A stretch of DNA of 64,000 nucleotides from Psammoneis japonica (taxonomy: Eukaryota): positions 1 to 64,000 of the forward strand of contig QPGO01000119.1 in NCBI GenBank assembly GCA_008632985.1. The letters are read 5' to 3'. The notes beneath the pieces were generated by a model. The model had not been told where the DNA came from, made no database searches, and saw nothing but the letters and a program-made list of their open reading frames with translations. Shown here in pieces: positions 17,848-61,664 of the stretch; positions within the stretch are counted from its first letter, which is position 1, and each line of letters starts with the position of its first letter. Both the position numbers and the translations under genes were made by a program.

Positions 17848-18549
17848 ACTCTCCGACCACCAGAACCTCAAGTTGCTCATGCTGGTTCACATGAAGTCCA
17901 TTCTTGTGCACTGCAACTCCCCAAAGGACCAAAACTTCAGCTCAGCAAAGAGCCCCAGAGCTTCTGCAAAGAACTGCTGAAAAATGCTTGTTCTCTGCCC
18001 TTGTTCTCCAAAGCTGGAGTGCGGCAAAGGGCCCTCTTTCTTCTTGCACTTTTTTGCCCCCCTGGAACAAGCCAGAGTTGGGAGCAATGATTGCAGTGCC
18101 AGAAATGTTGCATCTCAAGAAGAAAATGATGCTGGCTGCCCCGCTGAGACCCTCGGCTGTTGAAAAAATGTGTGTGCACATGCAGCCCAGAGCAGCTGAG
18201 ATCTTTGAAAACACACAAGCATCAAACATTGCTCAGCAGGCACATGATGTTCAAGCATTGCAGTTGAGCCCATGACCGCCAGCCACACCAAAATTTCCAG
18301 CGCCGGCAGCCAGCTTTTTTGATCGCCTCTGGACAGCTTCCACTCCCAAAGCATCTTGTGCAGCAGAAATGTTCGCACAGGTGAGAGAATCAGTCAGAGT
18401 CAACTGAGGATGCAAGAAGATGCCATTCACCTTTCCACCACTGGGAATCACCACCTTGGAAGGCAATGTCTCGAAACAGCTGCTCACTCCATCGCGCGCC
18501 CAGCCACGCCGAGCGAACACTTTCTGTGCGAAACATTCCGTTGAATTCG
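17848..18549. other. ~700-bp TpA-free intergenic block (probable decayed repeat)
   Basis: No TA dinucleotide found by eye between 17848 and 18549; rich in TG/CA; no recognisable product. Confidence 0.65.
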
Positions 18550-18740
18550 TAAATCCCGGTATGAAAATTTTTAAATATTGTATTCTGAAATATTTGAAGG
18601 GCGAAGAATGAAGATCGCAAGATCGATCGTGTGAATGAAGAAGAAGCCACTCGTTTATGAATATCATCAATGGTATTGGTGTTGCCGTCATCATCGCATC
18701 TCACAACTCAAACATAAGAAGCAACAGTTCAGGGCCAACC

Positions 18741-27200: not shown

Positions 27201-30200
27201 AAACAAGCGTCTTGATCAGTTGATGAACCAAGAAAGTGTTTTTTCGCACACGATCACTGAAGTTGCTGTGCAACAGCGTGGAGTCTCCTGCGAGACACCG
27301 ATGGAGGATGGAAATCTGTGCTGCGAAGGTGGCACCGGAAGGCATGTCTCGGAGCTTTGGATGCATGATCCTGTGAGAAATAAAAAGAAATTGATGAAGG
27401 ACATCGTCAAAGGCTGTGCTGGTTTGTCTCCACGGCATTTGACACCAATGGACGGAATCTTGCATTTCACTGCTGATGATCACAAGAATGGAAGGGAGCT
27501 TTGGGTCCATGATCCCATGGGTGAAACAACAAAAATGGCAAAGGACATCTTTCCAGCCCATTGTGGTTCAAATCCACTGCATTTGACACCAATGCACGGA
27601 ATGTTGTGTTTCGTTGCAGATGATGGAGGGAATGGAAGGGAGCTTTGGGTCCATTGTTCCTGTGGGCAAAACAACGAAAATGGCAAAGGTTCCAGGCAGT
27701 CATGATTTGCATTTTCGGGATTTGACACCAATGGACAGAATGTTGTGTTTCAGTGATGATGACAAGCTTTGGGTCCATGACCCCATCAGTGACACGACGA
27801 AGGTGGTCAGTGATGTCAACGCAGGCCGTCATCATTGGGACCCACTGGATTTGACGCCTGTGAACGGAATGTCACATTTCTTTGCCAATGATGGAGAGAA
27901 TGGAGTGAGGCTTTGGGTCCATGATCCTGTCAGCAAAACGACTCAAATGGCAAAGGACATCAATCGTGGAAAGAAAAAATCATTGAGTCCATTGCTTTCT
28001 TCTTTGACACCATTGGATGGCATGTTGTGCTTCGCTGTGGACAACAAGCTTTGGATGCATGATCCTTTGAGCCAAACAATGGAAATGGCAGAGGGCATCA
28101 AGCGTGGAAAGAATCGTGATGCTGACCCATCTTTGTTGACAGCAGTTGATGAAAAGTTGCATTTCAAGGCCAAATGCGGAAAACAGGGGAAGACCTTTGC
28201 GCTTTGGATGCATGATCCAAAGAGCAAAACAACTGAAATTGTGAAATTGGGCGACGAGACATTTCGCGAGCCGAGGTGTTTGGTGCCCATGGATGGAAAT
28301 CTGCTCTTCTTCAACAAAGACACCGACAACAACCTTGCTGGGTGGTGGTTGCTGGAGTTGGAGGAGGCCCAGGTCCTCGCACTTTTGCTTGTGAACCAAT
28401 GATGTGGTGTTCTCGTTGGTTTTGTCCCTCTTTTTCTTTCGACTCTCCACAAGTGGAACGGCAAAGTGACACCACCAGGTGTGAAGGAACAGGCGACATG
28501 CTCTGCACCATGTTTGTGCTGCTGTGTCAAGGACCCGGCAGGTCCGAAATGCAATTGAGTCCATCAATGATCGGCTCTTGAACACCACAAAAATTGTGAC
28601 ATGGTCCTGCGGAAATGACAAGCACACGTGCCTCGTGGCGCTCTTTCAGAAGACATGATTGATGTGTTCTTGGAACAGGAGAATGTTTTCCAAGGGACTT
28701 TCTTGATGGATCACCAAATGAAAAGCTGGAAATGGCCAGGTCACTTGAGGAGAACAGTGACAACAAAAAGAGTGTGAGGAGGTCCAGTGTGCAAATTCAA
28801 CAAGCAACAGCCTCTCTGCACAATGCTTGTGCTGCAGTGTCAAAGACCTGGCAGGTCCAAAATGCAACTGCACTGATTGATGATCAGCTCTTGCACACAA
28901 ATGCTGGTTCTGCAGAAGTGGCAAGCATGTGAGCCTCATGTGACACAAGAAGCTCATCACTCTGTTTCTTTTCTTGACTTCATTTTAGGATTTCTGAAGC
29001 CAGCTTCTTCCTCTTCTCCATTTGCCCAATTGTCATCTTAGAAGCTGTCAACTCTTGTGAGTTGACAGATTTCCTTGCATGGAGCAGGTTCAAGTTTGCA
29101 GTCTTGCAGGTCTCCAACATGATCTGCACCATTCTGTGCCACATTGCAGAAATGCAGCATGCACCATGCATGTTTGACATGCGCCAATGCACAACTGCAG
29201 GTGTGTGTCTGTTTGAGCAATTTGGGGCAACATTTTCACTTGCAAACAGCATGTGCAACCCATGCTCTTGGGCTCTTTCTTAAAAAAAAAACAAACAAAC
29301 ATCAGAAGGAAATGCCTTTCGCCAACCCCTCCACCATGCCAAAATGACAGAACTGGATCAGTCTTCAAAGAAGAAAAAGCAGATGTTCAGACCCAAGTGT
29401 TTGTTCAGTGTTGGCTGACCAATGTGACTGCTGCTGTGGGAGCACTCTGTCATTGCCAAGCACACCTGCTGGAACTTTCTCCTGCACTCTCCCTTTGTCC
29501 TGATGCCATTGTGTTGCACCACAAAAAGTCATGAGCTGCTTTTGTTGTCAAATTGAAGAAGCCTGACAAAATTGGGAAGGAAAGAGAAAGCATGTTTGTG
29601 GCTAAAAGAGATGGAGGAGAGCAGCTTCACAGCTGTTGCATGGGAACATGTCATTTCAGAAATGGTGCCCCATTTGGCATTCTGCCCACCTGTGAACATG
29701 GTGTCATTGCATGCTGGCCTGACACACTGAGGTCAAATGAAGCCATGGAAGAACAAAGCAATCTCCTGTCTTTGGCACCAATCCTGGAACAAGGGAGCAC
29801 AGAAGATGCAGCAGACAAATCCCAGAGTCTGCCACCTGTGGAGACAGAGCATGTTGTCCCTTTGCAAGCAACGCCCCCCTCTTGTGAGATGCAGAATTCT
29901 TTTTTTCATCAAGTGAAGAGTCTGAGGATGACTTCCAGAAAAGAAAAATCTTGCATTCAGTGAAGCAAAAGGTTGCACAGAGAGATCATCAGCAGAATGT
30001 CTTGTGCTCTTGCTTTGTCATCTCACCAGCATTGCATGGAAGAGTTTTTTGAATGTGTCATGATCAACTGTGCTTCCTTTCCTGCTCTGAACAATTCGCA
30101 TGTTGTCTGCCTCCGGAGGGATCTGGGGCAAGGGGCAAAAGGCCCAGGCCTTCTTGGCTTTCAATGCCTCATGCAGCACTTCTTGTGTTGTCAAATTCTG

Positions 30201-32320
30201 TCACTGCAAGTGCACAGACTTGCCAAATGACATTGACAAAGCTGCCATCAGGTGTTGTGGGAAAGAGTTTTCACCAAGCACAAAAAGAAGGAGCATGGCC
30301 CATGGTGAGCTGTGTGTTCTCAGCACAGCAATGTTGTTTGCATCATGGAGCTCAGCTGCACCTTTGGTCTTGTCATGCCTTGCTTTGACCCAGTCCAATG
30401 CAACAAAGGAGTTGGCTTTCTGCCCAAGATTTGGTTGCCTCTGGCTGATTTTGAGAAAAAGTGTTGCACACATGAAACTGATGATGTTTGTTGGCACCAC
30501 GTGGGCATTCATGGTGAAGAGATTGCTTTTGTTGATGTGGGCGGGATCTCTGGAAGAACCTGAAGATGTGGAAGACAACACTGTGGAAGATCCATTTGAT
30601 GCTTGCATGAAAGAGAGTGCACATGATCACTAAAATTTTTACAACAACCCAGGAAAAAATCATTGTTTGCAATTGAGTGCAGCAGCATGGTGCCAGAGCA
30701 GTCAGATGCATGTTGTGTGGCAGAGCTGCAGCTGCAGCACAGTGTCACTCCATTTCAAGACTGCACTCAAAGAGGTTGCATCACAACTGTTGATTTGAAA
30801 AACTGGTGGTGGATTGTCCACAACACTGGTGCACAGGACATCATGTGCCTCGCTCAGTCTTTCTCACAGCCAGATGCCCCCCCCTCCCCCGGGGCATGGA
30901 CTGTGCCCGGTGCATTGTCAAATGCCTGCTCCAACTGGAAGATCCCCTGAAGGAGTGGAATTTTGTCCACTGTGTGTGGCTCAGGTCCAGGCTCCACCTG
31001 ATCTTTTACAGCACATTGTCACAGCTGTGCCGTGTGTGTCTCATGCTGCTGTTGCAGAGACTCATTGGAGCAGCCATGGGCAGGTGCTGTGCAGCTCAAC
31101 AGGAGATGACCAAGCAGGGGGAGAGAGAGATGAAGAAAGTGCACATGCCCCAAGAAACATGCCAAAAATGAACAACAAAGTGCAGTGCGACATTGAGTCT
31201 TGATGTCCTGTTTTGTCCTTTTCAGCCCACACTGGGTGCTGCATTTCAACAAGTGCTCTGAGCTTTCATGTGGATGCGCGGGAGTTGCTGTGATCTCAAC
31301 AGCATCCCATGGTGATGCAGCAGCAAGCATCTTCCTGTGTCATTCATTTGGAGACAACAGCCCACTTTGTCTTGCATTTTTTGTTGTCTCCCCTGCAGCA
31401 CTGGCATTTGCACATCTTGAGTGGAGTGCAAAGCTTCTCCAGTGCTGTTGGGTCATGTGATTGCAAGTGACAAACATCACCCAGCAAGCAAGTTGAGGCA
31501 ACAATGACTTGTTGGCAGCTCAAGAATTTCTCCTTTTGAGTCAGTGTCAAAACTGCTTTCACTTGCACAGAGCCAAGTGCTCTGAATGTTCTTGTGAACA
31601 ACCCCATCTTGGGAGGCAGCTGGAACAATTTGGAGCAACATCTTGGACCCAGCTCCTGTCAACAAATTGACTGCAGTGACTTGCAAGAGTTCACTCAAGC
31701 TGAGGCTACAGTTTTGAAGTGCAAGTTTTTGCAGCTGGCTGCAAGTTGCTTTTTTGCAGCCAGCAAGATGAAATTCCTTGAGTTGCTGCAAAACTGTCTC
31801 TGTCCAATTTTGGGGGACAACTGCTTGGCAAGGGAGGAGGGAAAGCAATCATGTGGAGCAAATGCCCAGCTCTTTTTTTTTTTCAAGTCTCTGGAGCTGG
31901 CTGCCCCAGCACACATTTTCACAGAGGACCCGCAATCAAAACAGGTGCAGCTTTCCATGCGCTCAAATTGACAAGCTGGCACAACAAGCCAATTTTGTGC
32001 AAAAGCTCAACCAAAGCAGGTCATCATTGCAAACATGTTTTTTGGCATTGGTGCAATTGTGGCGCCCCCTTGCTTCTTGCCCACAAGAAGAGAGACTCGA
32101 TTGTGGCCTGACAACCTCTGCTTTTTTTGACAACCCCACAGCTTGTGCCGCTGCAGTGAGAATCTGGATGGAACGATCGTCATCATCCATTTTTGTTGTT
32201 TGGGGAAGTGAAGAGTGTAGAAGCACCCATGGAGCCAGTGCATTTCCCGTGGGGTGTCACTTGCGGAGTTGCAAACGTGCGCCAGTGTAGTGTGTTCCCT
32301 TTTCTTGCCGTTTGCGAGCA
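24240..32320. other. ~8-kb TpA- and CpG-depleted block of decayed sequence
   Basis: Roughly 25 TA dinucleotides by eye in ~8 kb, versus dozens per kb in flanking genes. Dense Cys/His-rich spurious ORFs in all frames. Internal ~90-bp duplication (~28500-28590 vs ~28812-28900). Confidence 0.75.
27290..28402 (+). pseudogene. Decayed ELWxxDGT-like beta-propeller repeat protein
   Basis: About seven ~45-aa repeats of the form LTPMDG(I/M)L(H/C)FxADDxxNGRELWVHDPxxxTTKMAKDI across ORFs 27196-27705 and 27614-28402; frameshifted; the expected Tyr of LYF appears as His or Cys. Confidence 0.75.
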
Positions 32321-37950: not shown

Positions 37951-39933
37951 CTACTTGGAGCAAAGCGGAAGTGCATCTTTCTTCAGTTTCTTTGTCATGG
38001 CCCGGACCCCTCTTCGCGCTCTCGACACTGCTTTCTTGAATTCCTTGTCAGTTCGTTTCTCCTTGGCCCACGTTAACCATGTGGTTTCCATTTCATCAAG
38101 AAAACTCTCTTGTAGGACTCCCTGGCCTCTCATGCGCTTGATGAAATCTCGAAGGAGATTGATGGAGCAGGTACTTGCGACCCTGCCAATCGAGGTAAAG
38201 CGAGGATCCGTCATTTGTAGTTCTACAAGATACTTTGTTGCTTCCATGAGGCGAAAGAGAGAATGGACTGCTTGTCCACGGTTCGACATGATGCGCCTTG
38301 AGAATAAAATTTTGTCGTATGCGACTTTGTTTTTTCCATCTATTGTCGTAGTATCCGGATAATACTTCCTCAGCAAATTGTCAAGGCACGACGTGTAGGC
38401 ACAGTTAACCTTGTTTAACTTGGGCGGAAACGGATTCGTCTTTGCGCTGCTATCAAACTCGAAAATTCTAGAAACATATTGGTCATCACCAGAACGCATT
38501 ATCGCGAACTTTCCACGGTATGCTTTGATTCCTCCTTCGTGATTCTTGTCCGAGTCAAAATGAACCAAGTCCGCACCCTCCTGTATCCATTTAGAACGCA
38601 CGAGCTTGAACTTTTGAGCCACATCTTTGTTTTGGCTGACCTTACTGGCGAGCAGAAGATGAATACCATCGTCAGACAAGGTGACTTCTGTACCCGAACA
38701 GTATACTGAGTCGCCACATTCGTCGAGGATCCTAAGCGAACTTGTCTCTCGCCACGAAGATGCTTTCCAATCATAGATACGAATGTACTTCGGATCACTG
38801 CGGGCAGTGGGAGGGCCAATAGCCAATCGATTTCCGTCAGCTGACATGGACAAAAGCGTTCCATTGATCTTACTTCCTCTGCGAGTCCAAGAGGACGATT
38901 TCCTCTGGCGATAAACTTCAACCATTGAATTCGCCCAGTAGTCGGGAAACGGAGTATCCAGCCTCGTACTGACAACAACAGTTTCGCCGTTGCCGGACAT
39001 GCTTACTCCTTCTTGATGACCTTGGAGAAATCCAAGAGAATGACCAATGGATCCGATTTGCTTCCACAAACTTCCACTATTGTCATATATTTTCACATCT
39101 CTACTGTTAGCTATCATGATGCGACGCCCGTTGTCGGATAAAGACACGTCGATTCCCAATTTTTCATTCATACGTGTACCATTGAAGGTCGCAAGGACAT
39201 TCCACCATTGTCCGTTCCATTCGTGGATGTTGACGTACCCAAAGTTCGAACACGCGTCAAAGCAGTTGTAGTCATCATCTCCGTCATCGTCATCAAATCG
39301 CGGGTAACGATCATCGTCCTCGCACCTGCTGCATTCACTGCTTGCAAACGCATAGCCCGCGGCGAGACGCGATCCATCCGCAGAGACAGATTTACTGCTC
39401 CCGTCGAATCTACCATGGAAACCAAATCGAGACCCCAATTCTTCCCAGAACGGCGATATGCCAGAGGTTTCATCAAGGTAAAAGACTTGTTCAACGGCTT
39501 CATATAACCTCTGGCGCGAAACAAAAAAACGCTTTCCGTCTTTTGATAGTTCGCTTCGAGACCACTCAAAATCGAACTTTAAATCATCCCCCAGCTGTTT
39601 CCACTCTGGAGGGACGCCGAGATTCCTACCACGCTGATGTGATTCTTCGAGACGTTGATCAGACGTTTTTAGCTGGCGCATCACGTTGTTGGGTCCAGCA
39701 TGATGAGCTCCTGCATATCCGATTGCAGCATCGAGCTCACCATTTACGGCCTTCCACGGTTCATTCGTAAGAGCATCGTTACTCACATTTCCGTGACTCA
39801 AACGATTAGAAGCGATAGTAATGCCAATCATCACCAGCTGCGCGATGAGCATTGACCCAAGAACAAAAGATGCCACCAACGCTACGGGCGGTTGCAAGAG
39901 TTCTTGGCGACGCTTCTTTCCGATTCCGTACAT
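37951..39933 (-). CDS. Membrane-anchored beta-propeller-like repeat protein of unknown function
   Basis: 660-aa ORF with N-terminal TM helix and repeated VS(L/M)SxDGxRLAxG and WxQxG motifs. Confidence 0.65.
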   Translation of the reverse strand: MYGIGKKRRQELLQPPVALVASFVLGSMLIAQLVMIGITIASNRLSHGNVSNDALTNEPWKAVNGELDAAIGYAGAHHAGPNNVMRQLKTSDQRLEESHQRGRNLGVPPEWKQLGDDLKFDFEWSRSELSKDGKRFFVSRQRLYEAVEQVFYLDETSGISPFWEELGSRFGFHGRFDGSSKSVSADGSRLAAGYAFASSECSRCEDDDRYPRFDDDDGDDDYNCFDACSNFGYVNIHEWNGQWWNVLATFNGTRMNEKLGIDVSLSDNGRRIMIANSRDVKIYDNSGSLWKQIGSIGHSLGFLQGHQEGVSMSGNGETVVVSTRLDTPFPDYWANSMVEVYRQRKSSSWTRRGSKINGTLLSMSADGNRLAIGPPTARSDPKYIRIYDWKASSWRETSSLRILDECGDSVYCSGTEVTLSDDGIHLLLASKVSQNKDVAQKFKLVRSKWIQEGADLVHFDSDKNHEGGIKAYRGKFAIMRSGDDQYVSRIFEFDSSAKTNPFPPKLNKVNCAYTSCLDNLLRKYYPDTTTIDGKNKVAYDKILFSRRIMSNRGQAVHSLFRLMEATKYLVELQMTDPRFTSIGRVASTCSINLLRDFIKRMRGQGVLQESFLDEMETTWLTWAKEKRTDKEFKKAVSRARRGVRAMTKKLKKDALPLCSK

Positions 39934-40249
39934 TACGACACGTTTCTTGGTGCTATCAGCGCCGCTTTTTGGTCAACAATGCTAGAGAAGTGTTGCGGAC
40001 AGCAGGCGTAGAAGGTTATTGACATCAAACATCAAGTCATCAGTCATCAAGTCACCCCACATGATGATCTCGAACGAGAAGGGTTCTCATTTTTTTGAAA
40101 CAATTAAGCGGACGTTGAACAGACAGACAAGTACCGGTCGACGCGACGCGACGAGCAGGTAGTCAATGTTACAGTCATCTATCTCTACATAACATAGTCT
40201 CTACTCTACTAGAGTAGAGCTCTAGCTAGAGTAGCTACTCTCTACTCTA

Positions 40250-44096: not shown

Positions 44097-44361
44097 TGGT
44101 TCTTAAAATACCCAAGCCCGCTTTCTTGTTATTGCATATGTACAGTATCTCTAGAGACCTAGAGAGAACAAAGACAAACTTTGAACGCTACTTGCAGATA
44201 TTTTCAACGCAGCAAGCAGCCATCAGCCATCAGCAGCATCGCACCTTCGCATCGTCGATCGTCGATCGCTCTACCTGTACCAATCGCCCAAATCTGCGGA
44301 GGCCGTACGACGTACAGTCATTTTTTGTCAAAGTCATTTTGGACATTTTCCACTTCTTGCA

Positions 44362-44796
44362 TGTGCAGTGTGCCTCGCCACTGGACAACACGGCGAGACC
44401 GTGCATAAGCCTCTTGTACGTGGCAACGTAGTGTTGTTAACACGTACCTGGGAAGCACGACCACAGGAGGGCGTGGCTCTAGGTCTTAGGCAATTCCAGA
44501 AGGATGCTAAGAGAGCATCCGTGTGAAGCACACTGGCCCGTCGTCTGGCCCACCATGGCAGCATGATTCCACACGATGACATCACTCGTGCGCAGCGTGT
44601 GATGGCTTGACTCGCACGATCCACAATGCGAGCGCACGATCGATTTGATGCGATCCCAATGCGAACGAACAGGGATTTGGCAAGATTCCCCATTCACACG
44701 ATCCCATTTTCTCTGCTCCAAGCTGGCTCATGATTTTCACAACGACAAAGTTGCAACACATCTTCTTTTCAGCGCCTGGCACATGCACAGGGCACA
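44362..44796 (+). repeat. 5' LTR
   Basis: Ungapped alignment with 49152-49586; starts TGTG, ends CACA. Confidence 0.93.
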
Positions 44797-44855
44797 GTGA
44801 TGTCACTCTCGCATGTTGTGCGAGGTGACGAAATCTGTAGAAACGAAACTGCGAA

Positions 44856-46040
44856 ATGTTGGCAGGACCGACAAATCTTAAAACGACCATGAAGAAGCGG
44901 ACCGAGCCGCCGATTCCGTTCGCACGGCCGGAGAAGAAAGAGCTGCAGCAGGGCGAGTGCCAGACATTCAAGCTGCGCAACAACCCCACTGATCCGGATG
45001 GTCCAACGCACGAGATGGGCATTCCGCACCTTTCCATGGCTGCATGCGAGATGCTCCCAATCTTTCTGCGCAACGTGGGTCGCGTGCACGAAGGACAAAA
45101 CATCACGACCGGGCCAGCGAAATTTGCCCTCATGCGTGACCCACTGCAGGGTGATGCTCTGACGTCATTTGACAATGCCGTTGACAAGCAGGCATCCCAA
45201 ACCAATGCTGCGTGCGCAGCATGCGTCGCCAAGCTAAAGGAAAGCATCTTCCCACATGGGGCGGCACTGTTGCAGAAGCGTCATCTGAGGCGCTTCATGC
45301 GCAAGCCCGCAGAGGTTTCCACTCGTGACTGCGTCGCGAGGGCTGTTGAAATCAACGGCCACATCTCTCAGTTTCCACCCGTGATGGAGGACAAAGAAGC
45401 ACTGGCACTGTCACCTGATGACGAACTGTGCGACATGTTCGAGTGCGGTGTGCCGAGCGCATGGCAGAAGTTCATGACGCTACAGAATTTTGACCCGTTG
45501 GCGCATGCCATCGCCGAATTCACACAGTTCTGTGAGTGCACCGAGCAGGTCGAGCTTGCCGAAGGTAACCGCGACCAACGTGCTGGGGTCCCACGCAAGC
45601 GGGGACGTAGAACGGACAATTCTGAGTCGTTGATCACGACCCAACCGAACACCCACGTGAAACGTGTCAAGACTGGATGTTCCAACAACGGAGGCAGCAA
45701 GCCCAACACAAAACCTCGGAATGAGGAAGATGTTGACACTCTCATCGGATCGAAGGTCGAGGAGTTCTTTGCCAACGCTCAGAAAAAGCGTAAGGCACGC
45801 AAGGAGGAGCTCAATCACTTCCGCGACCTCAACTTAAGTGATTCCGAAGACTCGGACACTTGCCGACACGATGCAGGTAGTTTTAATACATTAGATGAAT
45901 GTATAAATGAACAACTGAATTACCATCGTACACGTGTTGTAGGCCAATCCCGCAAACGAGTTAAAAAGACTCATCTTACTCCAATCTTGTTTATAGCTAT
46001 GAATGCTAAACATGGCAAGGGGCAAGACTCAAACCATTAA
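44856..46040 (+). pseudogene. gag: gag-like ORF of the Gypsy element
   Basis: ORF directly after the 5' LTR with QKRHLRRFMRKP and retrotransposon gag-like composition; Tyr absent until ~45920. Confidence 0.7.
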
Positions 46041-49000
46041 GGCACTATTAGATAGTGGCGCCAGCAGCACTCTACTCGACAGTCGATACTGTAAACGTCT
46101 GCGAAGCCATTCAACGGCTGAGACAAACTGGACTACGGTAGCAGGCTCGTTCAGTACGTCTAACGACTGTACCGTTAAATTTTGGTTACCAGAATTATAC
46201 GAAACTCTTAGAACTTAAATATACCGTCCACGTACACAACGGAAAGTTGGGCAAGTACGATATGATTATTGGACGTGACATTCTGGAGACACAAGGCATT
46301 GATATTGTCTTCTCTAAACAGATGATAGAGTGGCCATTAGTCAATGGAGAAGTACCAATGAGGCACGTAGATGCTACGGTAGAAACCTCCTTCTATCTTC
46401 AAGATCCAGAAGCTTTAGCTTCGGAAACCGACCGGATTTCGCGTATTTTAGACGCTAAGTACGCGCCGGCCTGCCTCAAGGACATAACGCGAGGGGCAAT
46501 AAATTTTCTATAGTTCAACAAAACGACCTTTTGGCACTATTGAAACGCCATGAGTCCTTATTTGATGGGACATTAGGAGAATGGAAGGGAGAACCCTACC
46601 ATATCCAACTCAAGGAGGGTGTAGAACCATACCACGCTCGTCCGTATAAAGTACCTCGTGCGTACGAAGCTACGCTACGTAAAGAAGTAGAACGCCTAGT
46701 ACGTATCGGTGTTCTCAAACGCGTTAACCGATCCCAATGGGCAGCTCCATCATTTATCATACCGAAGAAAGATTTAACGGTACGCTTTATTAATGATTTC
46801 AGAGAGCTGAATAAACGGATCAAGCGATTGCCTTATCCGATTCCTCATGTCCAAGATATGCTGCTCAAGCTCGAAGGCTTTATGTGGGCTACATCGCTGG
46901 ATTTAAACATCGGCCATTGTCACATCCGATTGGACACTGATGGCAAGAAGCTCTGCACGCTCATCTTCCCGTGGGGCAAGTATGAGATGCAGGCATTGCC
47001 CATGGGATTGTGCAACTCGCCAGACATTTTCCAAGAACGCATGTCAGGCTCATTTGAAGATCTGTCGTTCGTTCGAACGTGCTCAGATGACCTTCTCGTT
47101 GTGACGAAAGGCACCCACGAAGATCACCTCAACAAACTTGAAGAAGTTTTGTTGAGGGTCCAGAAGGCAGGACTAAAAGTCAACGCAACTAAATCTCACT
47201 TCTGTCAAACCCAATTAGAACACTTGGGTTGTCTGGTTGACAGAGACGGGGTGCGACCAATGCCCAACAAAGTCGATGCCATTGAGCGAATCGCGATCCC
47301 AACCAACAAACGCGACCTGCGCTCATTTGTTGGCATGGTGAACTGCCACCGCGACACGTGGATTGGACATTCTGAAGTCTTGGCTCCGCCAACACGACTC
47401 ACAAGCGAGGCTGTCAAGTGGGAGTGGACATCCGTTGAAGACGAGGCATTCGAAGCCGTTGAACGGGTGACATCGGATGATATTTTGTTGTCACATCCTG
47501 ATTTTAACAAACCCTTTGAGATGCGCGCCGATGCCTCTAAATGTCAATTGGGAGCAGTTGCATCCCAAGACAATAAAACCTGTCACCTTTTGCAGCAGAA
47601 AGCTTGACAGTGCGCAATTAAATCATGCAACAACGGAGAGAGAATCACTCGCCATTGTGGAGACATTGAAAGAATTTCGAACGACTCTCCTTGGTCATCG
47701 CACAACTGCATGCACTGATCATAAAAATCTTGCGCACAAAGTGTTCAATGCCGAGCGCGTTGTGCGCTGGCGGTTGACATGCGAAGAATGCGGTCCCGAA
47801 TTACGCTGTGTCAAGGGTGCCCACAACCTGGTCGCTGACGCTCTCAGTCGCCTTCGACTGGCACCCAGCTTGCCTTCCGAGGCCAATCCGGATGCAACAG
47901 ACACTCCATTGAGTCGTCCTTTGCATGAAGCTTTTAATGCAGATGCGCAAGATGAGATGTCTCTGCCCATTGGCTTCAAGCGCATTCAAAAAGCACAACA
48001 AAAGGACAAGCGCCTGCTCTCACGAGCCAAGGACTCGTCCGACTGCTCCATTCGCGCATGTCGTGGGGGAGGGTCATCACGACAGTTAATCTGTCATAAG
48101 GACAAAATCGCAGTGCCACAGTCATTGCAGGTTCCGCCATCTGAATGGTGCCACGAGACACTGTGTCATCCATGTGAGACACGCACGGAAATGTCCATTG
48201 CCCAGCACTTCTGTTGGCCCAGTGTGAGGTCTACGGTGCATTCTACGTGTGTTGAGTGCGATCGATGCCAGAAGACAAAACGCCGAATGCAGCATTGTGG
48301 GAAGCCACCAGAAAAGGTCGCAGAGACAATTCCATGGGAGACTCCATGCATGGATGTGACAGGGCCACATAAAATTCAAAGACGCGGAAAGGACACTTTG
48401 CAATTGTGGGCAGTCACAATGATTGACCCAGCAACCGGGTGGTTCGAGATTAAAGAAGTGTCTGCGAAACGCGCAGACGTCGCAGCAAACGTCGTGGAAC
48501 AAACGTGGCTATGCAGACATCCGTGGCCAACCCAGGTGGTTTGTGACCGTGGGACAGAATTTATGGCAGAATTCAGCCAGATGATTAAAAATGACTGTGG
48601 GATTTTGAAGAAACCCACAAGCAAACGGAATCCACAGGCGAGTGCCACAGTGGAGCGTGTGCACCAGACACTTGGTGACATGGTGCGTTCCTTTTCAGCA
48701 CAGGATGTGGAGCTGGACGAAGATGACCCATGGAGTGGCATCCTCTCCGCAGCAGCCTTTGCCACCAGAGCTGCGGCACATGCGACCACGCGTGCAAGTC
48801 CCATGCAATTGGTCTTCGGACACGATGCGGTTTTGTCTGTTGCTCATCGTGCCAAGTGGAAGCACATGGAAACCAGAAAGCAGAAGCTTGTCCACTTAAA
48901 CAACAAGCGTGAAAATCAGAAACGCAAGGAGTGTCAACATGCCGCAGGGCAATTGGCACTCATCAAACAGGAACAATCCTCTAAATGCGGTTCTGACAGT

Positions 49001-49115
49001 TGTGCAGGACCCGCCAGAGTTGTCCGTGTGCATGACAACGGCACGTTGCGCATCCAGAATGGAGTGCTGACAGATGCGTGCAATCTACGGCAGATTGTGC
49101 CCCATCACCAGCAAG
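46003..49115 (+). pseudogene. pol: pol (protease, RT, RNase H, integrase), frameshifted and hypermutated
   Basis: LLDSGAS protease; SQWAAPSFIIPKK, DFRELNK, LPMGL and CSDD (YxDD position) in RT; ADAS and TDHKNL in RNase H; HxxxxH...CxxC, DRGTEF and ERVH in integrase. Confidence 0.9.
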
Positions 49116-49151
49116 ACATCCTGTCACTTGACGGCCCTGATCATGGGGGAG

Positions 49152-49586
49152 TGTGCAGCATGCCTTGCCACTGGACAACATGGCGAGACTGTGCATGAGC
49201 CTCTTGTGCGTGGCAACGCAGCATTGTCAACACGCACCTGGGAAGCACGACCACAGGAGGGCGTGGCTCCAGGTCTCAGGCAATTCCAGAAGGATGCTGA
49301 GAGAGCATCCGTGTGAAGCACACTGGCCCATCGTCTGGCCCACGATGGCAGCGTGATTCCACACGATGACATCACTCGTGCGCAGCGTGTGATGGCTTGA
49401 TTCGCATGATCCATGATGCGAACGCACGATCGATTTGATGCGATCCCAATGTGAACGAATGGGGATTTGGCAAGATTCCCTGTTCACATGATCCCATTTT
49501 CTCTGGTCTAAACTAGCTCACAATTTTCACAACGACAAAGTCGCAACACATCTTCTTTTCAATGCCTGGCACATGCATGGGGCACA
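49152..49586 (+). repeat. 3' LTR
   Basis: Follows the PPT at 49145-49151; aligns to 44362-44796. Confidence 0.93.
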
Positions 49587-49739
49587 TGTGTCACCTTGAT
49601 CAAATTCATTTTTCCATCTCACAAAATCGATCTTTGAGATCACCTCTGCAGCTGCAGCCATGACTTCTCCATGGAGAACACACACATCAACAACTGTTGC
49701 ATTGAAATCTTGGGCAACCACTCTCTTTCCTGTGGAGAC

Positions 49740-52040
49740 TCTGGCAAAGCCCTGGTGCATCTTCTTGTTCCAGTTCCCCCATCATGGCCCAAACGCTTCT
49801 TCGAGCTCTTGACACAGCTTTCTTGAATTCATTGTCAGCTCTTTTCTCTTTGACCCATTCCAGCTGTGTGGTTTCAATTTCATCAAGAAAAATCTCGTCA
49901 AGGGATGATTTGCCAATCAGGTGCTTGATGAGATCTCGCAGGAGGCAGATTGATGGGGTGGAGCAGGTGGTGTGTTTGCAACCCTGCCAACTGCGGCAAA
50001 GCTGGCACTGGTCTTTTGCAGCTCTGCAAAATGCTTTGTTGCTTCCATGAGGTGAAAGAGAGAATGGACTGCTCATCCATGGTTTGACATGATGTGCCCA
50101 GAGAACAAAAAATCTTGTCGCGCGCAACTTTGTTTTCTGCATCCAGTGTCAGAGCATCTGCAAAATGCTTCATCAGCAAGTTGCCAAGGCATGACATGTG
50201 TGCACAATTGACCTTGTGCAACTTGGACAGAAACAGGTTTGTCTCAGTGCTGCTGTCAAACTCAAAAATTCTAAAAACATGGGGACCATCACCAGAGGAG
50301 TGCGTGCTTGCAAATTTTTCATCATGGCAGGCTTTGATTTCTCCAGTTCAGTTCATCAAGTTGGCACCCTCCTGCACCCAATTAGAACCCACAAGCTTGA
50401 GCTTCTGAGCAACACATTTCAGTTTGCCAACCCTGCTTGCAAGCAAAAGATGAGTGCCGTCGTCAGACATGGTGACTTGCACATCACAGTGACCCCAGTC
50501 TTTTCATTTGTCGAGAATCCAAAGTGAGCTTGTCTCTTGCCACGATGATGCTTTCCAATCATAGATGCAAATGTGCTTCAGATCACTGCAGGTGGTGGGA
50601 GGGCCAACAGCCAACCAATTTCCATGAACTGACATGGCCAACAGTGTGCTCCGTTGATCTTGCAGCCTCTGCAAGTCCAAGACAACTGCTTCCTCTCTGC
50701 ATGGCGACAAACTTCAACCTTGAAATTCTCCCAGCATTGAGATGACAGAGCATGCAGTCTTTTGCTGAGAGCAACAGCTTTGCTGTTTCCAGACATGCTT
50801 CTTCTGTTTGCACACCTGCTTGCACAGAACATGAGAGAACAACCAACAGATCTGGTTGGCTCCAACAAACTTCCAATGTTGTCACACATTTTTGCATGCT
50901 TGTTGGCATCTGTCAGTGTGATCCGATGGCCATTGTGTGACAAGGACACTTGGCTTCCCATTTCTTTCCCTGCATGAGGACCAACAAAGTCCCAGCGACA
51001 TTTCGCTTTTGTTCACTCTGCTCTGACTCCACTCATGAATTTTGTCCAGCCCAAACAAGTCAAGACATTGGTGGGCACACACGCAGTCATTGTGCTGAAA
51101 CTTGCAAAACCCATCTTTGCAAATGGCATCGTCATCATCATCATCATCATCATCAAAATCACAGTCATTGTTGTCTCACATGCTGCAGTCACTGTTGGTC
51201 TTTGGATGGCCCATGGCAAGATGCAATGCCCATCTGGTGCTGCCCACACGGGTTCATGCCTCTCATTGCAAGCATCGCACATGCCACCAAATTGCCCCCC
51301 CATTCCTTTCCAGAGTGGCTTTTTGCCAGATCTCTCATGGAGTTCAAAAGTGCATTTGCTGGTCTTGCATTCGTTGAGGCCACTGTCAGCATGGCAGGCA
51401 GTCCTGACGGAACCAAAAATGCTTCCCGTCTTTTGAGACATGGCTCAACTGCAAGACTTTTTCATGTGCGCACTCTAAAGTTTCCCCAAGCTGTTTCCAC
51501 TCGCAGGGGATGCCCAGATTGCCACCATGACGCAGGTGCTCTTGGGCACAATGACCAGATGTTTTCAGCCTCTGCATGTTGTTTCGTCTCATGTCATCAC
51601 AGGCTGCTCCTGGATGCCTGATGGAAGCTTTAAATCCACCAGCCATCGCCGACCTTTGATTGTTCATTCTTCGTCCGAGCTCCTTTGGAACCATTGCCCG
51701 TCTTTGAATGAGACCAAGAGACAGTGATGGCAACCATTCCCAACTGTGCTGGTGACATCGAACCCAGGACAATGGAAGCCAAAGCTGCTGGTCATGCTGC
51801 TTGTCGTGGACGCTTGTTTCCGACTCCGGGCATGCTCCACTTCGATTTGCTTTCTTGGTGCCGTCAGGCATTTGCTGAAGTGAAACAGTGGCACAGGATT
51901 CACCAATGAGAGAGGAGTGTTATGATGACAGGTCTGGTTGACAACAAGAGCCAAGAGAAGCTCCGTTTCCTTGTGTTTGATCTCTGATCTCGAAAATGAT
52001 GAACACGGGAGGGTTCTCATTTTTTGAAACATTTAGCGCG
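49740..52040 (-). pseudogene. Hypermutated paralog of the 37951-39933 gene, including its upstream flank
   Basis: Collinear similarity, e.g. 50012-50098 vs 38211-38297, and GGGTTCTCATTTTTTGAAAC at ~52011 vs ~40081. Reading frame broken; about 6 TA in 2.3 kb. Confidence 0.88.
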
Positions 52041-53009: not shown

Positions 53010-53176
53010 GCAACGATTTGAAATGGTGCGTCGGATGACTTGATATATGATATTTTATAACTGTTTAACCTTAGTTATCGCTACTTCTGAACCGCGTTTC
53101 CTTTAACTTGTCTGGTCGAGTAGTCAAAACAAACGTGTCATATTGTTTGCAACTTCTCAATCAAAACACTATCTAC

Positions 53177-59551: not shown

Positions 59552-59924
59552 GTTGGAAGTATCACCTGTGCACGAAATGGTTGCAAGTGTTGGTGTCGTT
59601 TGGAGAAAACGACACAAAAAAGGACAAAGTGTTTGTGTTGTTGCGTTGTTTGCCGTTTGACTTTTGTTCGAGAACACGAAAAAATATAACGGTCGTGGAG
59701 TCGTGATGCGCGCTCGCGTTGAATCGCGCGACTCGATTTCACAAGACATTGTGACGTCATGGGCCAACGGAAAATCCAACCAAAACCAAAGATGGACAGT
59801 ATTTATCGCAGATCAAAATCGTCCGATAATGACCAAGACATCGACACATGTCTCGGTCATTTCATTATACGAATACATCACGACCACACCATTGTTTCAC
59901 ATGGTTGGGTCGCATTTATTTTGG

Positions 59925-61664
59925 CGCCAAAGTCTTTTTTGCATGTGTGGCTGCGCGTGGTCGCCAGCAGATGAAGTGGCTGCTGGAATCTGTGTCATGT
60001 CTTTGCTGTGGACTGATGCATTTTCTCATCATGTTTTGGCAGTGTGGCAGCTCCTGCTTTTCAGCAGGGGGTGCTGGAACAACAGCAAGTTGCCAGCATG
60101 ATCTCTGGTGTGGTTGACTCTTCTTTCTTTTGTGCCTTTGCCCAGGGGGCAGGAGCCAAATTTTCAAACTCTGGATGTCATTGTTTTTGCAGATGTTTTT
60201 AGCCAATGCAGCAAAACAGCTGTGTGGTGACAAACAGCTCAACTGGAAAAGTTTGCCGCTGCATTTTTGTGGAAAGGAGCAGCAGTGCACAGCTTCTTGT
60301 GGCAAGTGTCCAAAGCCAAGGTGTGGGAGGCAAGAGCAGCCACAGCAAAAGACTGCCACTGCACATGTCTTCAAGTGCCAGCTGACAGACTTGTTGAAGG
60401 GTGCAATGCTGGGGGTGCATGTTGCTGGGGCCCAACAAGCAACTCAACAAAAAATTCGAACCAAGAGCAGCGCTTTTTGGACACGCCAGAGCTGCGGAAG
60501 CAGCAGCTTGGCAAAATTTTGGCAGGGGGGCGCTGCTGCACAAGCTTTTCAGTGCTCAAAGCAGTGCTCCTGCTGTCCCATGCTTGGCAGGCAGTGCAGC
60601 GCAATTGATCTTGGGAAGCTTGCTCTGTGGAAGCTTTTGAAGCTCTTGAGCCCCACGAAGCTCTTGAGCCAAGAAGCTGCAAATCTCGTTTCCCACAATG
60701 TGGCTTTGACTGGCTGCAACGTGGGCCAGCATGGGTGGCCAAGCCCCATTTTGATTGCTTCAAGAAGGTGCCTGCAGCCCATGAAGCCACAAGAGCTGGG
60801 TGTTGCCAAATGTGCTGCACGCGGCACTGGCATTGCTTGTTCTTGCAAAGCAGCGCCAAATCACCCAGCAGCACTTGCTTTTTCATTTCTTTTGATGCCA
60901 ACACACAAGCACAGGTGCACACTCCTGCTGTGCAGTGCATCAACACAGCAGCAGGTCAAATTGTCACACGCATGGGCAAAAAGCTGGAGGCGCCGCAAGT
61001 GGCACAACAAAGGTCAGCTTGCGCAATGGCAGCACATGATGCTTCCAGCAGATCGGAGTTGGTGGCATGCTGCACAAGAAATGCCATTGCATGGTTGTTG
61101 TGCAGTGTTGCACAGCAGATCTTGGAAACCTTTTTAGCTGTTTTCAAAGCTTTTGAGTTGGGCAGCACGGCTGAGCCAAGTTGCAAATTTTGCTGCCTGT
61201 GCAGCAGCTTTTGGTTGGTGGCAGCAGTCAGTTGGCTCTTGGCTCTGGCAAGGCCAGGTTTTTTGTTGCTCAGTTGTTTCAAGAAGGTGCACAGCTCACA
61301 AGGCTGCATGTGGCATTTTTGTTTTTTGTTGCAGAGCAAAACCTCAAATCACACAGGAGCTTGGTGCTTTTTCATTGCTTTTGACGAGGACATCAAAAAA
61401 CACACCAGCAGGTGGTGCACCCACTGTGCAGTCAGGGGCACAGCAAGGGGGGGGGGGGGGGGGGCGGAGTGGCTCAGCCTCCCCAGTCTTCATGAAAACC
61501 CACCAGCCCACGAGCCACACGAGCTCTACAAAACCTTTCACAAGGACATTGCAGCGGTCTCTCTCTCTCTTTTGCCACACTGCTGGCTGTGCTGACATGC
61601 ACGCAGCGTGTGTCACACGTGCACCTGTTTCATTGTTTTTGATGAGTGGCACTGTCAATGCATG
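59925..61664. other. ~1.7-kb TpA- and CpG-depleted block (probable decayed repeat)
   Basis: About 3 TA by eye (60200, 61135, 61527); internal similarity ~60840-60900 vs ~61328-61390; no recognisable product. Confidence 0.65.

Follow-up and report, generated by a model that had tools for sequence, protein, structure and literature searches.

The two long terminal repeats (LTRs) of a Ty3/gypsy retrotransposon in the window (the whole stretch of 64,000 nucleotides analysed here) differ in a pattern that we attribute, with a probability of roughly 0.8, to regional hypermutation of TpA to TpG/CpA in the chromosomal element together with a separable decay of CpG. The direction of the TpA changes, their strand symmetry, tract structure, timing after integration and context bias are shown by the data. 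According to the proposed explanation, a Ty3/gypsy element from a very high-copy family would have inserted into a diatom chromosome, where a regional and context-specific process then converted TpA to TpG or CpA by A:T→G:C transitions affecting both strands. Its favoured context would be 5'-R-T-A-Y-3', and Y-T-A-R would mostly be spared. It would have acted in sharp-edged tracts, the first beginning about 150 bp into the 5' LTR and followed by a spared 1.2-kb island, the second extending from the middle of the reverse transcriptase (RT) frame to beyond the 3' LTR, where it spans an adjacent pseudogene. The LTRs would have lost different TA sites because they are situated in different parts of this mosaic, and a TA mutated in both LTRs on opposite strands would today read TG in one and CA in the other. 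A second process, decay of CpG to TpG/CpA as expected from cytosine methylation, would have supplied the differences of the CG type; most of these fall in the 3' LTR, which adjoins a CpG-poor flank. The element consists of the following features.

44358..44361, no strand: putative target-site duplication, left copy, TGCA (read from the sequence)
44362..44796, + strand: 5' LTR, 435 bp, ends TGTGC...GCACA (LTR alignment)
44841..46040, + strand: gag-like open frame (1 Tyr in 399 residues)
46459..47607, + strand: reverse transcriptase open frame (Pfam RVT_1, RT_RNaseH_2)
47471..49198, + strand: RNase H/integrase open frame (Pfam RT_RNaseH, Integrase_H2C2, rve)
49145..49151, + strand: GGGGGAG purine run, polypurine-tract-like, adjoining the 3' LTR (read from the sequence)
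49152..49586, + strand: 3' LTR, 435 bp (LTR alignment)
49587..49590, no strand: putative target-site duplication, right copy, TGTG (read from the sequence)

A Pfam search with the gag-like frame gave no match. The purine run is presumably the plus-strand primer site.

Differences between the two LTRs

The ungapped alignment of 44362-44796 with 49152-49586 contains 40 mismatches over 435 bp, 38 of them transitions. Grouped by dinucleotide, they form 33 sites: 10 with TA versus TG/CA, 10 with CG versus TG/CA, 7 with TG versus CA (each a double mismatch) and 6 others. An earlier note on this DNA had given the same tally, which the alignment reproduces exactly, and had stated that the LTRs share no TA; the 5' LTR indeed retains 8 and the 3' LTR 2, with none in common. 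The corresponding CG counts are 28 and 23, of which 20 are common to both. For the 7 TG-versus-CA sites the ancestor could be either TA or CG. Mismatches occupy 35 of the 245 positions within TA, CG, TG or CA dinucleotides versus 5 of the 190 positions elsewhere.

Context enrichment, which the earlier note had proposed to test, was assessed with 20,000 random-transition simulations (40 random mismatches, 38 transitions), none of which is as extreme as the real pair. CA and TG are so common that chance alone puts about 20 of about 39 sites into the TA and CG classes, and a simple tally of contexts therefore looks more striking than it is. The simulated pairs have on average 19.2 sites in the class 'other' (minimum 8, never the 6 or fewer of the real pair) and 0.68 TG-versus-CA doubles (maximum 5, never 7 as in the real pair).

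Tracts of TA loss and CG decay

The loss of TA occurs in sharp tracts with a TA obs/exp of 0.0-0.3 and a CA/TG obs/exp of 1.6-2.0; in host DNA the TA value is about 0.55. Besides the two tracts in the element, four more are found elsewhere in the window. The tracts, the spared island and two paralogous sequences, labelled c1 and c2, are located as follows.

5041..6803, no strand: TA-poor tract, interior of a DNA transposon (inverted repeats of about 120 bp at 4907-5028 and 6897-7018)
17502..18550, no strand: short TA-poor tract, flanked by two divergent host genes (gaps of 307 and 704 bp have no TA)
24875..32218, no strand: the largest of the TA-poor tracts (7.3 kb), with strong CG depletion as well (composition)
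37951..39972, - strand: c1, intact paralogue and comparator, 673-aa open frame of normal composition (same window)
44510..45790, no strand: first TA-poor tract in the element, rest of the 5' LTR and most of the gag-like ORF (composition)
45791..46981, no strand: little-mutated island within the element, about 1.2 kb (TA obs/exp 0.7-1.2)
46982..51921, no strand: second TA-poor tract, long, covering the element's 3' half, its 3' LTR and 2.3 kb of flank (composition)
49720..51900, - strand: c2, hypermutated, frame-broken, single-copy paralogue of c1 (BLAST versus c1)
59917..61527, no strand: TA-poor and CG-poor tract (composition and Pfam search)

All 8 TA remaining in the 5' LTR lie within 44407-44509 and none beyond, and the 2 left in the 3' LTR (49509 and 49514) are both YTAR. 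In 250-bp windows the first tract has a TA obs/exp of 0.07-0.18 at a CG obs/exp of 0.96-1.08. The second has a TA obs/exp of 0.0-0.31, and its CG obs/exp is about 1 at 47-48.5 kb and falls to 0.14-0.34 past the end of the LTR. The island between them might have arisen when an unmutated copy later served as donor in gene conversion. The largest tract (TA obs/exp 0.01-0.06, CG obs/exp 0.06-0.63) has open frames without a credible Pfam match, and the tract at 17502..18550 gave no match in the Pfam search; in the DNA transposon tract, a DDE_3 match at 5670-5981 is weak (E 0.0012) and does not reach the Pfam cutoff. Coding repeats are found inside the largest tract, at 27351-27961.

The TA that survive are of a particular kind. 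In 18 kb of tracts 62 remain, 36 of them YTAR and 1 RTAY, versus 318 YTAR and 580 RTAY among the 1833 TA outside the tracts (chi-square p 1e-15); no ATAC, GTAT or GTAC survives within the tracts. From c1 to c2, TA is retained in 3 of 8 YTAR contexts versus 1 of 43 others. A strand prediction from half-sites (RTAR to CA 7:3, YTAY to TG 8:4) lies in the predicted direction and is not significant (p 0.2).

TA and CG are lost together in four of the six tracts compared. CG is nevertheless intact (about 1.0) at 44500-45750, where the TA obs/exp is about 0.1, and among related elements in metagenomes there are four with a CG obs/exp of at most 0.15 and a TA obs/exp of at least 0.62. The reading of the earlier note holds with the qualification that the two losses are spatially separable and probably represent two processes, with CG decay probably reflecting cytosine methylation.

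With respect to the chemistry, DNA adenine deamination by a tRNA-adenosine-deaminase-like enzyme is our tentative suggestion, held at somewhat below even odds, and a thymine-directed chemistry would be equally compatible with the sequence. In the latter, a TET/JBP-like oxidation or modification of T in TpA would cause T→C mispairing, parallel to the C→T change of 5-methylcytosine in CpG, and one machinery acting on 5-methylpyrimidines before purines could account for TA and CG alike. As TpA is self-complementary, any TA→TG equally corresponds to a T→C change in the opposite strand, the favoured context RTAY is likewise palindromic, and the sequence itself cannot tell adenine from thymine chemistry; the joint losses in four of six tracts also fit. 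Yet TA loss is undiminished at 44500-48500, a stretch with CG intact, and CG-only decay occurs in related elements elsewhere, both at odds with a single machinery. The sole experimental precedent, the chlorarachniophyte Bigelowiella natans, is moreover explained by adenine deamination, a proposal unproven there as far as that source describes it. We consider the thymine version unlikely but credible.

Family copies and the common origin of the LTRs

Summed over contigs, the depth is 10,000-20,000 in the interior of the element, 49,000-61,000 in the LTR and 60-140 in the flank; judged by these ratios, the family seems to comprise hundreds of copies. Recombination or gene conversion, giving an element with LTRs from different family members and differences that reflect divergence between copies, would thus have had ample partners. 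The copies also differ mainly by the transitions in question (398 of 419 variable places), and a conversion patch could also explain the spared island. Three observations make such an origin improbable. The flanking TGCA and TGTG fit a single target-site duplication if the ancestor was TGTA or TGCG, a compatibility that only 1.4% of random 4-mer pairs drawn from the window have under the same mutation model. Both LTRs carry the variants at 49382, 49388 and 49447, which occur in at most 1% of the family depth. The TA state of each LTR continues that of the adjacent DNA, unmutated host flank on the left and TA-free pol and flank on the right. The premise of a single insertion is thus upheld, and even in a recombinant the mutations would have arisen in chromosomal copies.

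Further information is provided by the 40 of 423 variable places of the family that are listed. Nine of them, in 45596-45873, have TA in 13-81% of the family depth and CA or TG here. Six are located in the LTR, three at mismatch sites between the two copies; the family agrees with the 5' LTR at two CG sites (49330 and 49452, CG in the family and the 5' LTR, CA/TG in the 3' LTR) and at one transversion site. The claim that each LTR changed independently is supported.

Direction of change

The direction is read from tyrosine codons. In the RNase H/integrase frame none of 14 conserved Tyr columns is retained (now 7 Cys, 6 His and 1 Asn), accompanied by six I→T, three L→P and three V→A changes. 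The frame has no Tyr in 575 aa versus a median of 4.1% in 120 homologues, with 5.2% versus 1.4% Cys and 5.0% versus 2.8% His. The change of TA/CG to TG/CA accounts for 39 of 83 departures from conserved residues, versus 0-13% in five unmutated relatives (0/20, 1/26, 1/23, 2/15 and 1/16). Past 46981 the RT frame retains none of 8 conserved Tyr columns, and the Y of its YxDD box reads C; within the island 3 of 6 are retained, with identity at 88 of 108 conserved columns. Among the substitutions of the pol frames there was no change from His or Cys to Tyr.

The flanking pseudogene gives the same picture. With 72% identity between c2 and c1 over 1245 bp (BLAST), c2 retains 4 of 74 TA (26 now CA, 23 TG) and 17 of 129 CG (44 now TG, 29 CA), versus 41-65% of the remaining dinucleotides. 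The 21 Tyr codons of c1 correspond to 8 His, 6 Cys, 1 Tyr and 6 other codons in c2. As conserved Tyr codons were lost to TGY/CAY or otherwise and none were gained, TA is ancestral and the direction is TA→TG/CA; for the LTRs the same direction is supported by carrying it over from the adjoining coding sequence and flank.

This direction is the opposite of repeat-induced point mutation (RIP), a process that in ascomycete fungi changes C to T mainly at CpA, creates TpA and mutates both copies of a repeat. A RIP-like origin would start from CA/TG in the ancestral LTR, with CpA changes producing the TA of the 5' LTR and CpG changes removing CG from the 3' LTR. The 38 transitions of the LTR pair are formally C↔T or G↔A, the pair alone gives no polarity, and the TA obs/exp of the island (1.0-1.2 at 45791-46981) exceeds that of host DNA. 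Unmutated relatives, however, have values of 0.57-1.06, so that the island reflects the native composition of the family. Such an origin would also require mutation of CpA alone in one LTR and mainly of CpG in the other (8 and 2 versus 2 and 8), the composition of the tracts is the reverse of a RIP footprint, and the paralogue c1 is untouched where RIP would mutate both copies. Together with the destroyed Tyr codons this leaves a RIP-like origin very improbable.

A metagenome locus, L075 (one of 78 related loci), is an independent instance of the footprint. Its TA obs/exp is 0.02, none of 6 conserved Tyr is retained (4 C, 2 H, with an outcome unlike that in the window at 4 of the 6 sites), and 8 of 13 conserved Arg are changed to Cys, His or Gln.

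Strand symmetry and timing

Tyr→Cys (A→G on the + strand, 10 cases) and Tyr→His (T→C, 9 cases) are about equal in number and interleaved codon by codon; both strands were therefore mutated, in agreement with the earlier note. Its claim of a chromosomal origin after integration is likewise borne out, since the TA-free tract extends 2.3 kb past the 3' LTR into the single-copy pseudogene c2. In animals, RNA and cDNA deaminases are well known to hypermutate retroelements. Editing before integration, by ADAR-like A-to-I conversion of RNA or deamination of cDNA, would mean that the LTRs were never identical, and a 5' U/T preference would suit adenosine deaminases, as ADARs favour a 5' U (cited in the B. 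natans preprint, bioRxiv 10.64898/2026.01.13.699255). We give it hardly any weight: apart from the strand symmetry, the mutated flank did not at any time belong to the element, the same footprint marks the inside of a DNA transposon, which has no RNA intermediate, and the putative target-site duplication is altered too.

Modified bases are a possible cause of context-specific consensus errors, and a sequencing or assembly artefact such as systematic miscalls at these bases is the least probable reading, given the L075 footprint in an unrelated contig, the coherence of protein-level effects (Tyr→Cys/His, frame breaks in c2) across kilobases, and Logan contigs of run X1 that match the window at 49532-51117 (0 differences) and 51172-52200 (1 difference) at a depth of 61-72. 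Runs X1-X3 derive from a single sample, perhaps the one that was assembled; their agreement therefore excludes an assembly artefact, not a peculiarity of the strain.

Comparison with known systems

The closest known case is the TpA hypermutation described for B. natans by Mettrop et al. (bioRxiv 10.64898/2026.01.13.699255), where integrated giant-virus and virophage DNA undergoes A→G/T→C changes only at TpA, at about 6e-7 per site per generation. As far as the text of the preprint describes it, both systems have changes confined to TpA that give TpG or CpA depending on the strand, act regionally on foreign or mobile DNA, and leave a lasting footprint in clusters of 1-kb windows, where TpA is low and CpA+TpG high; in B. 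natans such windows are enriched in reverse transcriptase, DDE domains and unannotated ORFs. The host here is a diatom (stramenopile) rather than a rhizarian, and the process has hit an LTR retrotransposon, a DNA transposon and a single-copy pseudogene rather than integrated viral DNA. The footprint is near saturation (TA obs/exp 0.0-0.1 versus 0.45 in the B. natans NCLDV region), with a bias of RTAY over YTAR and a co-located, separable CpG decay; the main text of the preprint does not contain the words 'CpG', 'trinucleotide', 'flanking' or 'LTR'. For the diatom Phaeodactylum tricornutum, the mutation-accumulation study PMC6604790 reports a GC→AT bias of the ordinary kind and no hotspot like this one, so that not every diatom shows evidence of the process.

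With RIP, which targets C→T mutation to repeats (PMC7296669), the process shares dinucleotide-specific transitions in chromosomal DNA after insertion that destroy mobile elements in tracts, can spread into adjoining single-copy DNA and inflate LTR divergence; its chemistry and direction are opposite, as TpA is destroyed and G+C rises. The 10 CG sites of the LTRs, the CG-poor flank and the change of Arg CGN to His, Cys, Gln or Trp in c2 and L075 resemble the CpG decay of methylated transposons, and diatom transposons do carry cytosine methylation (PMC6604790). The TA loss, in contrast, is stronger, differently distributed and unexplained by 5-methylcytosine deamination. Animal APOBEC3 and ADAR enzymes likewise produce deaminase-type clusters of transitions with a dinucleotide preference and inactivate retroelements, but they act strand-specifically on cDNA or RNA before integration.

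Implications

Between the LTRs the K2P distance amounts to 0.101 when all sites are counted, and to 0.027 for the positions outside YR dinucleotides. The age of the element is thus overestimated about 3.8-fold from LTR divergence, an error that the earlier note had anticipated. By analogy, the process would be of the same kind as that in B. natans, and we infer a silencing or defence activity against repeated or foreign DNA. In the literature represented by that preprint, a TA-targeted mutation process has so far been reported for one other alga.

Structure of the element and divergence of its LTRs

The retrotransposon under study and parts of its surroundings have undergone a chromosomal, tract-wise and strand-symmetric hypermutation of TpA to TpG or CpA with a preference for RTAY (R, purine; Y, pyrimidine), to which a spatially separable decay of CpG is added. 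The element and the two paralogous reading frames used for comparison are located as follows.

Element and paralogues (window coordinates)
44362-49586: Ty3/gypsy LTR retrotransposon, recognised by an LTR pair (5' LTR 44362-44796, 3' LTR 49152-49586) and RT, RNase H and integrase domains
49145-49151: purine run GGGGGAG, directly before the 3' LTR
37951-39972 (-): c1, intact 673-aa frame of normal composition
49720-51900 (-): c2, frame-broken paralogue of c1, in the 2.3 kb that follow the 3' LTR

The two LTRs comprise 435 bp each and have the ends TGTGC...GCACA. Between them, Pfam domains follow in the order RVT_1, RT_RNaseH_2/RT_RNaseH, Integrase_H2C2 and rve, with a gag-like frame ahead, which is the RT, RNase H, integrase order of Ty3/gypsy elements (Metaviridae). 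The TG...CA ends, the purine run (putative polypurine tract) and a short putative target-site duplication (TSD; TGCA left, TGTG right, compatible and not identical) conform to the same family. No primer-binding site was identified in the element, no further copies exist within the 64-kb window, and an exact 20-base stretch of the LTR has 0 matches among the metagenome contigs.

The ungapped alignment of the LTRs contains 40 mismatches, 38 of which are transitions. Sorted by dinucleotide, these form 33 sites (10 TA versus TG/CA, 10 CG versus TG/CA, 7 TG versus CA, and 6 others), reproducing exactly the breakdown in the earlier note. Its statement that the LTRs share no TA is likewise borne out: the 5' LTR has 8 and the 3' LTR has 2, none at a common position, while 20 CG are common to both. 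By itself, the context count is less striking than it appears, since CA and TG are so common that about half of random transitions enter the TA or CG classes. In 20,000 simulated runs of random mismatches in this LTR pair, the 'other' sites had a mean of 19.2 and a minimum of 8, never 6 or fewer, and the TG-versus-CA doubles had a mean of 0.68 and a maximum of 5, never 7; the proposed context enrichment thus goes beyond chance. The mismatch density is 35 of 245 positions inside TA, CG, TG or CA dinucleotides versus 5 of 190 elsewhere; as regards mutation rate, this contrast is indirect.

The intact state is found in the 5' LTR at 8 of 10 TA differences and likewise at 8 of 10 CG differences, because this LTR spans the edge of a TA-poor tract (all 8 of its TAs lie within 44407-44509) whereas the 3' LTR is situated deep inside one. 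We estimate 10 single-hit TAs, 5-7 discordant double hits and a similar number of concordant, invisible ones; the ancestral LTR would have held roughly 20-24 TAs in 435 bp (observed/expected ratio, obs/exp, ~0.8-0.9), in agreement with the spared island inside the element and with unmutated relatives (0.57-1.06). With all sites included, the LTRs have a K2P distance of 0.101, which drops to 0.027 when only the 190 positions not part of a YR dinucleotide are counted. Dating by LTR divergence therefore overestimates the age 3.8-fold, in the direction that the earlier note had anticipated.

Direction of change in coding sequence

In a pairwise LTR comparison, a change from TA to TG/CA is indistinguishable from the reverse, and the direction was therefore taken from coding sequence, which can polarise changes as tyrosine is encoded by TAY only. 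The RNaseH-integrase frame (47471-49198) was aligned with homologues from metagenomes (40 sequences, 46-56% identical), and columns in which at least 70% of the homologues have Tyr were considered conserved. None of the 14 such columns is kept: seven have become Cys (TGY), six His (CAY) and one Asn. The next most frequent changes are I to T (6), L to P (3) and V to A (3), which match what ATA, CTA and GTA codons would yield; of 25 conserved Arg columns, 23 still have Arg. Tyr is missing from all 575 residues of the frame, compared to a median content of 4.1% among 120 homologues, with Cys at 5.2% versus 1.4% and His at 5.0% versus 2.8%. The RT frame retains 3 of its 6 conserved Tyr before position 46981 and 0 of 8 after it, six of the latter being TGY or CAY; the Y of the YxDD box is replaced by C.

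Among the departures from conserved residues in the window copy, 39 of 83 can be produced by TA or CG changing to TG or CA, compared to 0/20, 1/26, 1/23, 2/15 and 1/16 in five unmutated relatives scored on their own DNA. No change from His or Cys to Tyr occurs among the substitutions relative to the homologues. Since Tyr is lost and not gained, TA is the ancestral state and the process runs opposite to fungal RIP. The changes are A to G or T to C at TpA, giving TpG or CpA (13 of 14 and 6 of 8 Tyr columns, and the c1/c2 pair), and both strands are affected, as had been proposed: Cys and His outcomes are about equally frequent and interleaved.

TA-poor tracts in the window

The loss of TA is regional. 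Six tracts with sharp edges make up 18 kb of the 64 kb and consist of two recognisable transposons, one pseudogene adjoining a transposon, and three regions without Pfam identification.

TA composition along the window (obs/exp)
Outside tracts: host DNA, TA ~0.55
5041-6803: tract, interior of a DNA transposon, TA-free
17502-18550: tract of ~1 kb, TA-free
24875-32218: tract of 7.3 kb, TA 0.01-0.06, CG down to 0.06
44510-45790: tract, TA 0.07-0.18
45791-46981: spared island in mid-element, TA 0.7-1.2 (also given as ~1.0-1.2)
46982-51921: tract, TA 0.0-0.31
From 52000: right of the long tract, TA normal
59917-61527: tract, TA-poor

The DNA transposon (4907-7018) has terminal inverted repeats of ~120 bp that are 82% alike and that keep TA and many CG; its interior has a weak DDE_3 match (5670-5981) below the Pfam cutoff. 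As a second pair presumed identical at insertion, these repeats differ at too few places to be scored. A Pfam search of 91 open frames in the other tracts gave none above the curated cutoff and three sub-threshold matches (ArsD, DDE_3, DUF4336). The tract 24875-32218 contains long open frames on both strands, a consequence of the loss of TAA and TAG, as well as diverged coding repeats at 27351-27961, with no family match. The spared island possibly stems from gene conversion with an intact copy; its interpretation as an intron of a guiding transcript was discarded, convincing splice signals being absent at its edges.

The tract 17502-18550 separates divergent genes for an ABC1-kinase (14650-17844, -) and an ABC transporter (18639-, +). 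The best named relatives of the former all come from diatoms (Amphora, 62%; Asterionellopsis, 54%; Pseudo-nitzschia, 50%), in line with the diatom host. Homologues cover only 83-87% of its frame, and the long open frame at this end may be an artefact of lost stops, provided that the missing coverage is at the N-terminus, which we assume. The ABC-transporter domains extend over three successive frames (+; 18639-20483, 20487-21452 and 21700-22575), which may be one gene split by a stop or by short introns. A frame of 725 aa (8373-10550, +) has bZIP and PAS matches, both below Pfam cutoffs, an aureochrome-like combination typical of photosynthetic stramenopiles and taken here as no more than a pointer to the host. 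A direct repeat of 137 bp, 98.5% identical, is found at 63110-63244 and 63396-63532 (starts 286 bp apart).

Comparison of the paralogues and sequence context

The intact frame c1 and its hypermutated paralogue c2 provide a second coding comparison. Only 4 of 74 aligned TAs of c1 are kept in c2 (26 became CA, 23 TG) and 17 of 129 CGs (44 TG, 29 CA); the remaining dinucleotides are each kept at 41-65%. The 21 Tyr codons of c1 correspond to His (8), Cys (6), Tyr (1) and other residues (6), its 34 CGN Arg codons to His (12), Cys (5), Gln (3), Trp (2), Arg (6) and others (6). As a single-copy pseudogene is mutated and its intact paralogue spared, something other than mere copy number must set off the process.

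The TAs that survive reveal a context preference. Within the 18 kb of tracts, 62 TAs remain, 36 of them in YTAR and 1 in RTAY, compared to 318 YTAR and 580 RTAY among the 1833 TAs outside (chi-square, p ~1e-15); ATAC, GTAT and GTAC have no survivors in tracts where ~15 are expected. In the c1/c2 pair, TA has survived in 3 of 8 YTAR sites versus 1 of 43 in other contexts (p 0.01). For the half-sites, RTAR goes to CA rather than TG by 7:3 and YTAY to TG rather than CA by 8:4; this tendency is not significant and is in the direction expected of a strand-wise 5'-T-A-Y target. The three TG-versus-CA sites in the otherwise spared left fringe (TSD, LTR positions 8-9 and 71-72) would all have been G-TA-T if derived from TA. 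We also considered the two surviving TAs of the 3' LTR as the mark of an untranscribed U5 and discarded this reading: LTR positions 370 and 427, further on, are TG-versus-CA sites, and the two survivors both have the disfavoured YTAR context.

CpG decay, probably a separate process

The CpG losses are most simply a separate process. CG obs/exp is ~1.0 across 44500-48500, where TA is already lost, and then falls along the element's final kilobase, reaching 0.14-0.34 just past the LTR end; the decay probably spread from the flank, or is older there. The CpG to TpG/CpA change is raised in some tracts (CG obs/exp 0.06-0.6) and not in others (~1.0 at 44500-48500). A CpG deficit with conversion to TpG/CpA, the pattern expected of 5-methylcytosine-driven decay, is seen in the c1/c2 pair (17/129 kept), at 10 LTR sites and relative to the CG of the family.

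Metagenome contigs supplied 78 related loci, of which four (L041, L047, L074 and L028) have lost CpG only (CG obs/exp 0.0-0.15, TA obs/exp 0.62-0.90). Given these relatives and the distinct locations of the two losses, the CG-type differences may be read, from composition, as the usual loss of CpG in DNA that is methylated and the TA-type differences as the outcome of a distinct process. We note a strand asymmetry in the CpG decay between c1 (37940-39990) and c2 (49720-51900): CG in RCGY became TG 19 times and CA twice, with other contexts balanced.

One of the 78 loci, L075, bears the TA signature. It encodes a gypsy-type integrase of another element at 48% amino-acid identity and has TA obs/exp 0.02, CG 0.24 and CA/TG 2.17. 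The 270 residues encoded by its first 1000 positions (L075:1-1000) include 16 Cys, 12 His and no Tyr; none of six conserved Tyr is kept (4 Cys, 2 His), with an outcome unlike that of the window copy at four of the six, and 8 of 13 conserved Arg have changed to Cys, His or Gln. The remaining 77 loci have TA obs/exp of 0.57-1.06.

Timing relative to integration

The claim that the changes arose in chromosomal DNA after integration is upheld by the extension of the TA-loss tract past the 3' end of the element into single-copy flank and by a compatible TSD. Contigs from sequencing run X1 agree with the window across this junction at a depth of 61-72 (0 differences in 49532-51117, 1 in 51172-52200); runs X1-X3 are one sample, possibly the assembly's own source. 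Both TSD 4-mers, TGCA and TGTG, can be derived from TGTA or from TGCG, and random window pairs are compatible in 1.4% of draws.

The element family is very abundant: reads on the 3' half reach a summed depth of 10,000-20,000 in the interior and 49,000-61,000 in the LTR, values that are not a copy number. Six variable places in the LTR are among the 40 of 423 listed. At three of them, both LTRs have a variant that accounts for at most 1% of family depth; such common variants, rare in the family, identify the two LTRs as sisters. Together with the 1.4% chance of a compatible TSD, they argue for one insertion rather than two recombined elements. At the other three, the 5' LTR has the family state and the 3' LTR is derived (two CG to CA/TG, one transversion), and family depth shows CG at 49330 and 49452. 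Within 45596-45873, nine of the listed places have CA or TG in the window copy and TA in 13-81% of family depth; copies were thus mutated independently. Overall, the observation in the earlier note is confirmed and its interpretation supported.

Comparison with known systems

Fungal RIP changes C to T at CpA (or CpN), which creates an excess of TpA and a deficit of CpA/TpG, and it mutates all duplicated copies. In contrast, the tracts have TA obs/exp of 0.0-0.3 and CA/TG of 1.6-2.0, Tyr codons are lost and not gained, and c1 is intact whereas c2 is saturated. As c1 and c2 are only ~70% alike, the pair is perhaps below any repeat-recognition threshold.

The closest counterpart is found in Bigelowiella natans. 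According to a preprint (bioRxiv 10.64898/2026.01.13.699255), two integrated viral regions mutate ~1000-fold above the rest of the genome, solely by A to G or T to C at TpA, in some lineages only and with G:C to A:T not raised; TpA-poor, CpA- and TpG-rich windows are clustered and enriched for RT and DDE domains, and a DNA adenine deaminase resembling ADAT2 is put forward as the enzyme. The terms 'CpG', 'trinucleotide', 'flanking', 'LTR' and 'diatom' have no occurrence in its main text (bioRxiv 10.64898/2026.01.13.699255). For diatoms, full-text searches gave no report of a TpA-hypermutation signature; mutation accumulation in Phaeodactylum is reported to show the ordinary GC to AT bias (PMC6604790). 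The present locus probably belongs with the TpA hypermutation of foreign DNA reported once before, in this 2026 preprint on a chlorarachniophyte. New are the diatom host and the retrotransposon target, together with what the locus reveals about when the changes arose, their sequence context and their independence from CpG decay.

Mechanism and significance

Because a retrotransposon of very high copy number is hit along with a DNA transposon and adjoining DNA, we infer a defence or silencing-linked activity. Adenine deamination and a thymine-directed modification predict equal sequence changes, since TpA and the preferred context are both palindromic. A tentative joint reading, to which we assign a probability of about 0.3, is that diatoms share with Bigelowiella a DNA-level, TpA-directed A:T to G:C system, an ancient SAR-wide defence opposite in direction to RIP. 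Under this reading, the palindromic R-T-A-Y preference would point to a TadA/ADAT-like adenine deaminase on chromosomal DNA, Tyr codons and TAA/TAG stops would have been erased from hundreds of retrotransposon copies, and borders would be set by chromatin or transcription units, as tracts start ~150 bp into the 5' LTR, sit inside transposon terminal repeats and end at the pseudogene start.

The locus provides a near-saturated footprint in a stramenopile, dated after insertion by the LTR pair, the TSD and the flanking single-copy pseudogene. The preference for RTAY over YTAR and the separation from CpG decay are testable, narrow the enzyme search and suggest a wide occurrence of the process within the SAR supergroup. 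In such genomes, ages from LTR divergence are inflated (here ~3.8-fold), and hypermutated copies, having lost TAA and TAG, contain long open frames that may be mis-annotated as genes. Elsewhere, in genomes as in metagenomes, such tracts can be recognised simply by 'proteins' that are free of Tyr and rich in Cys and His.
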